In this document: one piece after another, positions 1,679 to 2,372 of the stretch | How positions within the stretch are numbered: position 1 is the first letter of the stretch | Layout: every line of letters begins with the position of its first letter | UHGV virus genome: UHGV-0204244 | Length of the DNA stretch: 22,624 nt | Direction: 5' to 3' (one strand) | Source of the DNA: a virus | The notes under the pieces: model-generated | The model's database searches: none | What the model was told of the DNA's origin: nothing | Seen by the model: only the letters and a program-made list of their open reading frames with translations | Made by a program: the position numbers and the translations under genes

Positions 1679-2372
1679 CAATTTTCACATCACCGGGCAG
1701 TCATAAAACTCACCATAAAGCTCTTCGTTGATGATGTACGTGATCACCAAAAATATCGCATCAGGACAAGTTCCATCTTCATGCGCAGGTATCTGTTCAT
1801 GCCTACCTGTCTGCAAACCAGTAATAAGCTATTACAGTGTGATAGTGATGCATCAACTACGATAAATGCAGAGAAATGATGCAGTGGTGGGAGGACTGGC
1901 TTGATGAAAAGGTGGAGTGATCCACCTTAACTACCGAAGAGAACAAAGCCTTGCAATCCAGTGCAAAGCTTTGTTTGTCTCAGTTTTGTCTCATCAACCA
2001 CAGCAAGTCATCGATCGATTGAGGCTTGGATGATAGACTTCATACCTTTGTATATTTCTGGTTTGTTGATGAAGCGAGTATTCTATGATATGTGCAATTA
2101 AACCCACTTTTCTGTCGAATCTGCAAGTCTAATAACTAATCAACTATAGGTATAGTATATTAATACAATTGTAATGTTTGGGTATCTAAATGATTAATTA
2201 TGATTCATAAATTTACTGATCTTTGAAGGTGTGGTTGATGAGGCAATTTTTTGTTTGGATGACGACTTTTCTCAAAATATCTACCATTCTTTTCCTTAAT
2301 TTCGCCATGCATGGCGCTTTGGTGTGATGGTTAAAAAATGAGCTACAAAAATTTAGACTTGATATAAATGGG

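Follow-up and report, generated by a model that had tools for sequence, protein, structure and literature searches.

Gene order and attachment site

The window analyzed here, a stretch of 22,624 nucleotides, corresponds to the left half of a P22-like (Lederbergvirus) genome. Its closest relative was Shigella phage Sf101 (95.5% identity over 59% of the window), a scan of genome contigs returned one close relative only, and the source phage was shown to be a P22-like Lederbergvirus near Sf101 that carries a 2851-type integrase. From left to right, the window encodes an AlpA-like gene (21-212, plus strand), a P4-type integrase with an arm-binding domain (193-1371, minus strand), an acyltransferase with AT3 and SGNH domains that extends to 4165 (plus strand) and a tailspike (4191-6404, minus strand), and the gap between int and the acyltransferase gene is 966 bp. 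The AlpA-like gene and int are convergent and overlap by 20 nt at their 3' ends (193-212), an arrangement that is also present in HK140, mEp234 and Sf101.

The left part of this gap (1372-1680) is occupied by an attP of the phage-2851/Sf101 type, associated with integration in sbcB, which directly adjoins the region 1681-2372 on its left. The first-pass annotation had suggested that the attP core may lie within 1681-2372; instead, the 13-bp core TTTCACGATTACG was located at 1586-1598, 83 bp to the left, and two sources agree on this position. The annotated 13-bp "type 2851" core of the mEp234 record maps to 1586-1598, and the attP published for Sf101, CGTAATCGTGAAA, which lies upstream of int with integration in sbcB (PMC4159516), is the reverse complement of window 1586-1598. 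Five copies of the arm-type repeat TTTGGTAC(G/A)C (repeat family D1-D3) flank the core, three of them at 1380, 1403 and 1415 (within 1380-1424) and two at 1653 and 1665 (within 1653-1674). When E. coli prophage ends and Stx-phage records were compared with the window, they matched 1300-1598 and 1569 onward separately, with an overlap of 1569-1598. The int gene itself was ~98% identical to that of 2851-type phages. The element is a 2851/Sf101-type attP by its 13-bp core, the adjacent 2851-type integrase and the flanking arm repeats, all of which lie outside 1681-2372.

On the other side, an OafA-like O-acyltransferase (AT3 + SGNH) gene spans 2338-4165 on the plus strand and was identified by Pfam matches (PF01757 and PF19040) on two ORF halves. 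This gene had been read as beginning at 2373, but the true ATG is at 2338; the ORF seems to begin at 2373 only because a run of six A residues has five here and the frame is shifted as a result. In intact relatives the protein is 609-610 aa long, and one of these relatives (P0001) is 92% identical. Relative to them, the window has lost one nucleotide at each of two places, A6 being A5 at 2347-2351 and G5T3 being G5T2 at about 3405-3406, and each loss is a -1 frameshift. The A6 run is present in E. coli FACU 2024 and in E. fergusonii, while the extra T is present in L040, which is 99.5% identical. Both frameshifts could be local sequencing errors; since the window's virion genes, ~16 kb in all, are unbroken, a real inactivation of the acyltransferase is favored.

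Between int (start at 1371) and the acyltransferase gene, no intact ORF with a family match was found. None of the six small ORFs tested from 1681-2372 matched Pfam, and no PHROG match was obtained for the small ORFs at 1643-1879, 1728-1865, 1917-2033, 1961-2101 and 2223-2327 on the plus strand or for those at 1685-1816, 1994-2107 and 2205-2312 on the minus strand; the frame of ORF 2223-2327 is interrupted by indels in relatives. Scanning the region for tRNA genes gave none, and Rfam gave only two chance-level matches (E 0.28 and 0.51). The description of this region as an unusually long, non-coding leader of about 650 bp was therefore sustained as regards intact ORFs, but ~240 bp of 1681-2372 consist of recognizable gene fragments, and the length is ordinary for this phage type. 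The corresponding int-oacB region of Sf101 (Jakhetia et al. 2014, PMC4159516) belongs to the same phage type, is 97% identical over window 1-1817 and likewise has the alpA-int-attP module with the same 13-bp core and, between attP and tailspike, an O-acetyltransferase gene; its authors described gaps of 200-600 bp in it as 'apparently non-coding' (PMC4159516). It differs in that the Sf101 enzyme is OacB (AT3 only, 390 aa) rather than an OafA-like AT3+SGNH protein, and in that the region upstream of the acyltransferase is unlike that of the window, the two sequences diverging after about 1996.

Gene fragments and hairpins to the right of attP

By performing tblastn with the HumD proteins of HK140 and of the IMG/VR prophage L013, we identified a remnant of humD (umuD-like, S24 peptidase) at 1685-1869 on the minus strand. 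Two alignments in different frames were obtained, one of HumD residues 83-129 to 1825-1688 (E 2e-9) and one of residues 46-76 to 1869-1777 (E 2e-5); the remnant covers residues ~46-129, is frameshifted, has an internal deletion and lacks the N-terminus. The equivalent stretch in the sbcB prophage of E. coli ECSC054 is labelled in RefSeq as 'HumD family, frameshifted, missing N-terminus'. Intact humD is carried by HK140 and L013, the L013 protein matching PF00717; in the window, an ORF of ~129 aa for HumD with a Peptidase_S24 domain was absent, the window ORFs here giving no Pfam match. On the basis of these alignments, 1685-1869 is a humD pseudogene remnant.

As a separate observation, the humD remnant lacks ~60 bp at ~1810-1817 relative to Sf101, E212 and mEp234, a loss that may be taken as a further sign of ongoing decay.

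In L013, the order is an attP-side humD on the minus strand, a LexA box, the acyltransferase promoter and the acyltransferase, and this arrangement is colinear with window 2150-4165. The attP-humD regions of L013 and HK140 contain a humD homologous to window 1685-1869. Whereas humD and the SOS box are intact in L013, humD in the window is split and decayed, with a 197-bp intS/gtr piece in between. The AT-rich tract highlighted in the first-pass annotation was borne out (GC 0.29 in 2101-2300), and within it lies a decayed LexA (SOS) box, TAGTATATTAATACAA, at 2153-2168. This sequence is colinear with intact boxes and aligns with CTGTATATGCATGCAG of L013 and CTGTATATGCATACAG of L019; in L013, and similarly in L019, the box sits between the intact humD and the acyltransferase. 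An intermediate form, TTGTATATTAATACAA, is found in E. fergusonii. The colinear alignments showed the AT-rich tract, with its decayed SOS box, to be a relic of the humD promoter region. The stretch 2058-2107 (minus strand) is colinear with relatives, but its alignment score was reached by 54 of 1,000 shuffles, which weakly suggests a possible humD 5' remnant.

The humD remnant adjoins the 3' end of an IntS-type (argW/CPS-53-type) integrase gene on the plus strand, comprising the last 19 codons and the TGA at 1918-1920 (1861-1920). Window 1861-1917 encodes DKCREMMQWWEDWLDEKVE, which is identical to K-12 IntS residues 367-385 at 17 of 19 positions (tblastn, E 7e-10), and the DNA matches the intS 3' end in K-12, FACU 2024 and about 780 E. 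coli genomes. Its stop codon is straddled by a perfect 8-bp stem with a gtga loop, AAGGTGGA-gtga-TCCACCTT (1909-1928, plus strand), which the first-pass annotation had listed among the features of a possibly regulatory leader. The hairpin was confirmed as described, with a fold of -12.4 kcal/mol and z = -3.8 against shuffles. However, the TGA of the integrase fragment falls in the loop, and the stem contains 1-2 mismatches in K-12, FACU 2024, ECSC054 and mEp234, with no compensating changes. Because the stem is unconserved and uncompensated and the loop holds a stop codon, the perfect hairpin is best seen as a by-product of the coding-sequence fragment.

The adjacent imperfect hairpin, placed at 1945-1972 in the first-pass annotation, also proved real and was slightly larger than claimed. 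Its 14-nt arms (1942-1955 and 1962-1975, plus strand) are 93% complementary, with a fold of -18 kcal/mol and z = -3.1. This hairpin, which follows the int/att module, is common to lambdoid phages: window 1940-2006 matched 190 phage records, including lambda, 434, P22, L, epsilon34, SfIV and Stx phages. It is marked as a terminator in the L and epsilon34 records, and CII-binding (CII-box-like) sites are annotated on the opposite strand in epsilon34 and 434. In the window, a perfect CII-box-like TTGCN6TTGC, TTGCACTGGATTGC, is present on the minus strand at 1953-1966, and a leftward promoter at this position would read across attP into int in the sense direction. One of the 14 pairs in the RNAalifold consensus was compensatory. 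In E. fergusonii, the left arm is different yet still pairs with the right arm, and our scan flagged this variant as terminator-like; in the window itself, the hairpin at 1942-1975 is followed by a tail, TGTCTCAGTTTTG, that is U-rich only in part, and no terminator was flagged there. These features suggest that 1942-1975 is likely a bidirectional rho-independent terminator. The acyltransferase can do without it, since FACU 2024 and N7 have lost one hairpin arm by deletion. In lambda, 27,469-27,509, just beyond tI/sib, is 92% identical to window 1940-1977 over 38 nt. As in the window, the lambda element lies just past the int/att module, and it comes after the classical tI hairpin and attP. No defined function was found for this element in lambda.

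A homologue of the gtr core promoter and the question of switching

The first-pass annotation compared the leader with the gtr operons of P22-like phages and proposed phase variation through Dam and OxyR. The comparison with gtr held in one respect: window 2003-2056 (plus strand) is homologous to the P22 gtr core promoter, with the GATC at 2013-2016, corresponding to P22 GATC-4, in the -35 region. In an ungapped alignment anchored on GATC-4, 21 of 40 positions were identical to P22, a score reached by 1 of 10,000 shuffles; when the alignment was anchored on P22 GATC-1 instead, identity was at chance level. An extended -10, TGaTAGACT (2031-2039, plus strand), aligns with TGcTACACT of P22, and the predicted start is ~2046, as set by the published transcription start 33 nt downstream of GATC-4 (PMC2909390). 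By its GATC-4 within the -35 and its -10 ~20 nt downstream, the window element is a predicted gtr core promoter. The gtr-type homology stops at 2056, ~20 nt short of where gtrA would start.

The switch that accompanies this promoter in P22 was sought in the same comparison. In P22, the Dam/OxyR switch lies between the shared hairpin and the core promoter and is made up of GATC sites and three OxyR half-sites (A, B and C), of which A and C overlap the GATC pairs. The P22 GATC sites form two pairs 13 bp apart, at -110/-97 and -46/-33, and our comparison recovered these spacings as 13, 51 and 13 nt. Instead of the two GATC sites (about 2012 and 2218) counted previously, the region 1681-2372 contains four, at 1742, 1919, 2013 and 2218; with 2.35 expected from base composition, the sites are not enriched. 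Paired sites were absent from it, the GATC at 2013 being the one homologous site and those at 1742, 1919 and 2218 being unpaired and located in unrelated fragments. For the ~107 bp that hold GATC-1 to GATC-3 and the OxyR A and B half-sites in P22, no counterpart was found in the window. Scanning for OxyR half-sites (ATAGnTnnnAnCTAT-like, with at most 2 mismatches) yielded 10 matches in 22.6 kb versus 7.9 expected, and the sole match in the region, at 2146-2160, contains no GATC. The P22 gtr regulatory region (Broadbent et al. 2010, PMC2909390) thus shares with the window the homologous core, the TGnTAnACT -10, the same hairpin before it and a position downstream of int/attP; it differs in having GATC-1 to GATC-3, OxyR half-sites A, B and C, and gtrA downstream, all of which the window lacks.

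In its arrangement, the window resembles the gtr promoter SCB67_I of S. Choleraesuis, which is reduced to the -35 (GATC-4) and -10 and did not phase vary (Davies et al., PMC3688519). A second close parallel is the intS-yfdG (gtrA) interval of the K-12 prophage CPS-53, which is 89% identical to window 1860-2056, covering the intS 3' end and the whole intergenic region; the homology ends ~20 nt ahead of the yfdG ATG, and the spacing from the K-12 GATC to the gtrA ATG is 58 nt, exactly that of P22. Compared with CPS-53, the window keeps 61 bp of intS, and AT-rich remnants and the acyltransferase replace yfdGHI. These comparisons show that E. coli-type gtr promoters, and this acyltransferase cassette, which inherited one, are devoid of the Dam/OxyR switch of Salmonella; the serotype conversion that such prophages bring about is therefore probably not subject to phase variation through this mechanism.

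Heritable ON/OFF expression of the acyltransferase from a gtr-like leader under Dam/OxyR control would be in keeping with the true core-promoter homologue and its GATC-4 in the -35, and with the GATC at 2218, which is kept in 6 of 12 orthologous upstream regions. We nevertheless regard it as very unlikely, given one homologous GATC in place of two pairs 13 bp apart, the missing trio of OxyR half-sites, an OxyR match count close to expectation, and a reduced Salmonella promoter of the same form that is not phase-variable. Moreover, the GATC at 2218 is a single site that reads GATA in E. fergusonii, the closest intact relative, and is missing in 5 other orthologues, and the GATC at 1919, which reads GAGC in K-12, FACU 2024, ECSC054 and mEp234, is unconserved. 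We infer that acyltransferase expression is not switched by Dam/OxyR.

The core promoter borders on one arm of a 17-nt inverted repeat (1986-2002 and 2230-2246), the arms of which are complementary at 16 of 17 positions and lie 227 nt apart. An invertible promoter cassette at 2003-2229 would fit this geometry, as the repeat brackets the gtr-type promoter and, by our estimate, ~0.005 exact 12-nt inverted matches are expected by chance between two 300-bp segments. Such a cassette is extremely improbable, however: no invertase gene appears in the ORF list of window 1-6000, a single orientation is found in the window, FACU 2024 and E. fergusonii, the right arm in E. fergusonii has an extra mismatch that is uncompensated, and either arm is conserved in lineages without the other. 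Searches of metagenome and viral contigs gave 0 matches to the inverted junction and also 0 to the native junction, and hence no denominator. One arm is conserved in upstream regions of the gtr type and the other, independently of it, in those of acyltransferase genes. The 12-nt core of the repeat, TGTGGTTGATGA, lies ~50-57 nt upstream of both predicted starts; the gtr-side copy, in the E. coli-type gtr promoter, reads TCATCAACCACA at 1991-2002, and the acyltransferase-side copy is at 2230-2241. In Kosakonia, the sequence orthologous to the right arm matches the CRP consensus, TGTGA-N6-TCACA, perfectly. The inverted repeat could thus represent a shared regulator site, chance or, least likely of the three, an inversion switch. 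That its core is a host-regulator site which co-controls different phage-borne O-antigen-modification genes, through a possibly CRP-like regulator, would be consistent with these positions, but we consider it quite unlikely.

The sequence GTTGATGA occurs four times in 1681-2372, a count reached in 7 of 500 simulations. It was rejected as a regulatory motif: the copies at 1727, in the humD remnant, and at 2065, in the possible humD 5' remnant, align with Ile-Ile codons of humD, and the remaining two copies correspond to the inverted-repeat arms.

The predicted acyltransferase promoter and the probable history of the region

The acyltransferase gene is accompanied by an upstream region of ~130 bp (2208-2337, plus strand) that travels with it across seven genera. 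In relatives whose proteins are 60-86% identical, nucleotide homology begins only at window 2208 or 2254, and sequence to the left of ~2208 is unconserved across the orthologues. We aligned 12 upstream sequences from E. coli, E. fergusonii, Salmonella salamae, Enterobacter, Kosakonia, Leminorella and Citrobacter. The pattern GATGACGA-N16/17-TATCAT was kept in 11 of the 12, spanning 7 genera, and the proximal promoter that it marks is conserved in E. coli, E. fergusonii, Salmonella salamae, two Enterobacter lineages, Kosakonia and Leminorella. In the window, this corresponds to a candidate -35, ATGACG (2259-2264), and a candidate -10, TACCAT (2282-2287), on the plus strand with a 17-nt spacer, a predicted start at ~2294 and an implied 5' UTR of ~44 nt. 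With a spacing within 16-18 nt and conservation among orthologues, ATGACG-17-TA(T/C)CAT is a predicted sigma-70 promoter. The promoter scan flagged L041 and L013 (9/12), while the window scored 8/12 because of a T-to-C change in the -10 and was unflagged; the -10 reads TACCAT in both the window and FACU 2024. Upstream of the -35/-10 pair, a block GTGATC-N9-ATGTGGTTGATG is conserved, including TGTGGTTGATG at 2230-2240, and its GATC is the site at 2218. A single untranslated leader is at odds with this conservation, which indicates a promoter merely 50-80 bp upstream of the ATG. For work on the expression of OafA-like phage acyltransferases, this promoter region of 130 conserved bp offers a defined target.

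The block varies in form among the relatives. In L015 and L018, three tandem copies of TTGATGTAG stand in place of the GTGATC...TGGTTGATG block (window ~2215-2245). In Leminorella grimontii (L125), in which the acyltransferase is at 2001, a (GA)n microsatellite of ~25 units (~1880-1935) lies directly upstream of the -35 GATGACGA and is a candidate slipped-strand phase-variation tract in this species.

Transcription mainly from the relic gtr promoter (~2046) would instead create an AT-rich 5' UTR of ~290 nt that might regulate by RNA structure or Rho. The extended -10 TGnTAGACT looks competent, and the three closest loci (the window, FACU 2024 and E. fergusonii) all keep the segment ahead of the gene; this retention says little on function because the three loci are 93-100% identical there. 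Orthologues that are 54-86% identical in protein lack the segment and keep the proximal ~130 bp alone, no Rfam match was found in the region, and the small 5'-proximal hairpin had z = -0.1 with weak covariation, so that we judge this route unlikely. The latter hairpin (2303-2316), considered as an attenuator, was rejected with the same z value and little covariation.

H-NS targets AT-rich foreign DNA, and silencing is common for horizontally acquired low-GC genes. Binding and silencing by H-NS of the AT-rich part (about 2060-2340, GC about 0.3) is possible though doubtful; it draws on a GC of 0.29-0.32 in 2001-2300 and on a similarly low value in the acyltransferase gene, and it is compatible with a mosaic origin of the region.

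Such a mosaic origin accords with the fragments described above, which were identified by tblastn, blastn and independent database annotation. In our view, 1681-2372 is quite probably a recombination patchwork lying between attP and a "moron" (an accessory gene that carries its own expression signals), namely the O-antigen acyltransferase, and not a dedicated regulatory leader. The phage attP was shown to end at ~1680 and to be followed on its right by the dead C-terminal two-thirds of humD on the minus strand. This remnant was shown to adjoin a 197-bp piece copied from an IntS-type phage (1860-2056), in which the final 61 bp of intS are joined by the lambdoid hairpin that follows int and by the gtr core promoter; rightward of this piece lie the AT-rich remains of the humD promoter region and then the ~130 bp that natively precede the acyltransferase. 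The block 1860-3226 is 97.4% identical to the argW-intS-acyltransferase locus of E. coli FACU 2024, and the block 1962-4186 is 93% identical in E. fergusonii, where it lies downstream of a gtrABC operon. The shared 197-bp intS/gtr piece seems to be a recombination handle that may move O-antigen-modification cassettes between phages with different integrases; the order in which the pieces would have recombined was deduced solely from breakpoints.

Under the patchwork reading, a proximal sigma-70 promoter of its own (ATGACG-17-TACCAT, start at ~2294) would drive, or would have driven, the acyltransferase gene, and the relic gtr promoter may contribute read-in transcription. In the prophage, the 1942-1975 hairpin might stop transcription that crosses the att junction and so insulate the accessory gene. 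The acyltransferase itself would be dead by its two frameshifts, and its -10 appears weakened by the T-to-C change, so the whole module looks to be decaying. More broadly, long "non-coding" stretches beside phage att sites call for caution, as they are often built from stacked fragments of genes and from the borders of modules, and a hairpin or GATC site within them need not be regulatory.

One further arrangement was seen in the E. fergusonii locus L041 (1-5833), where gtrABC and the acyltransferase are in tandem, each with a separate copy of the gtr-type core promoter segment ahead of it, and with an unrelated integrase fragment (3115-3471) between them.
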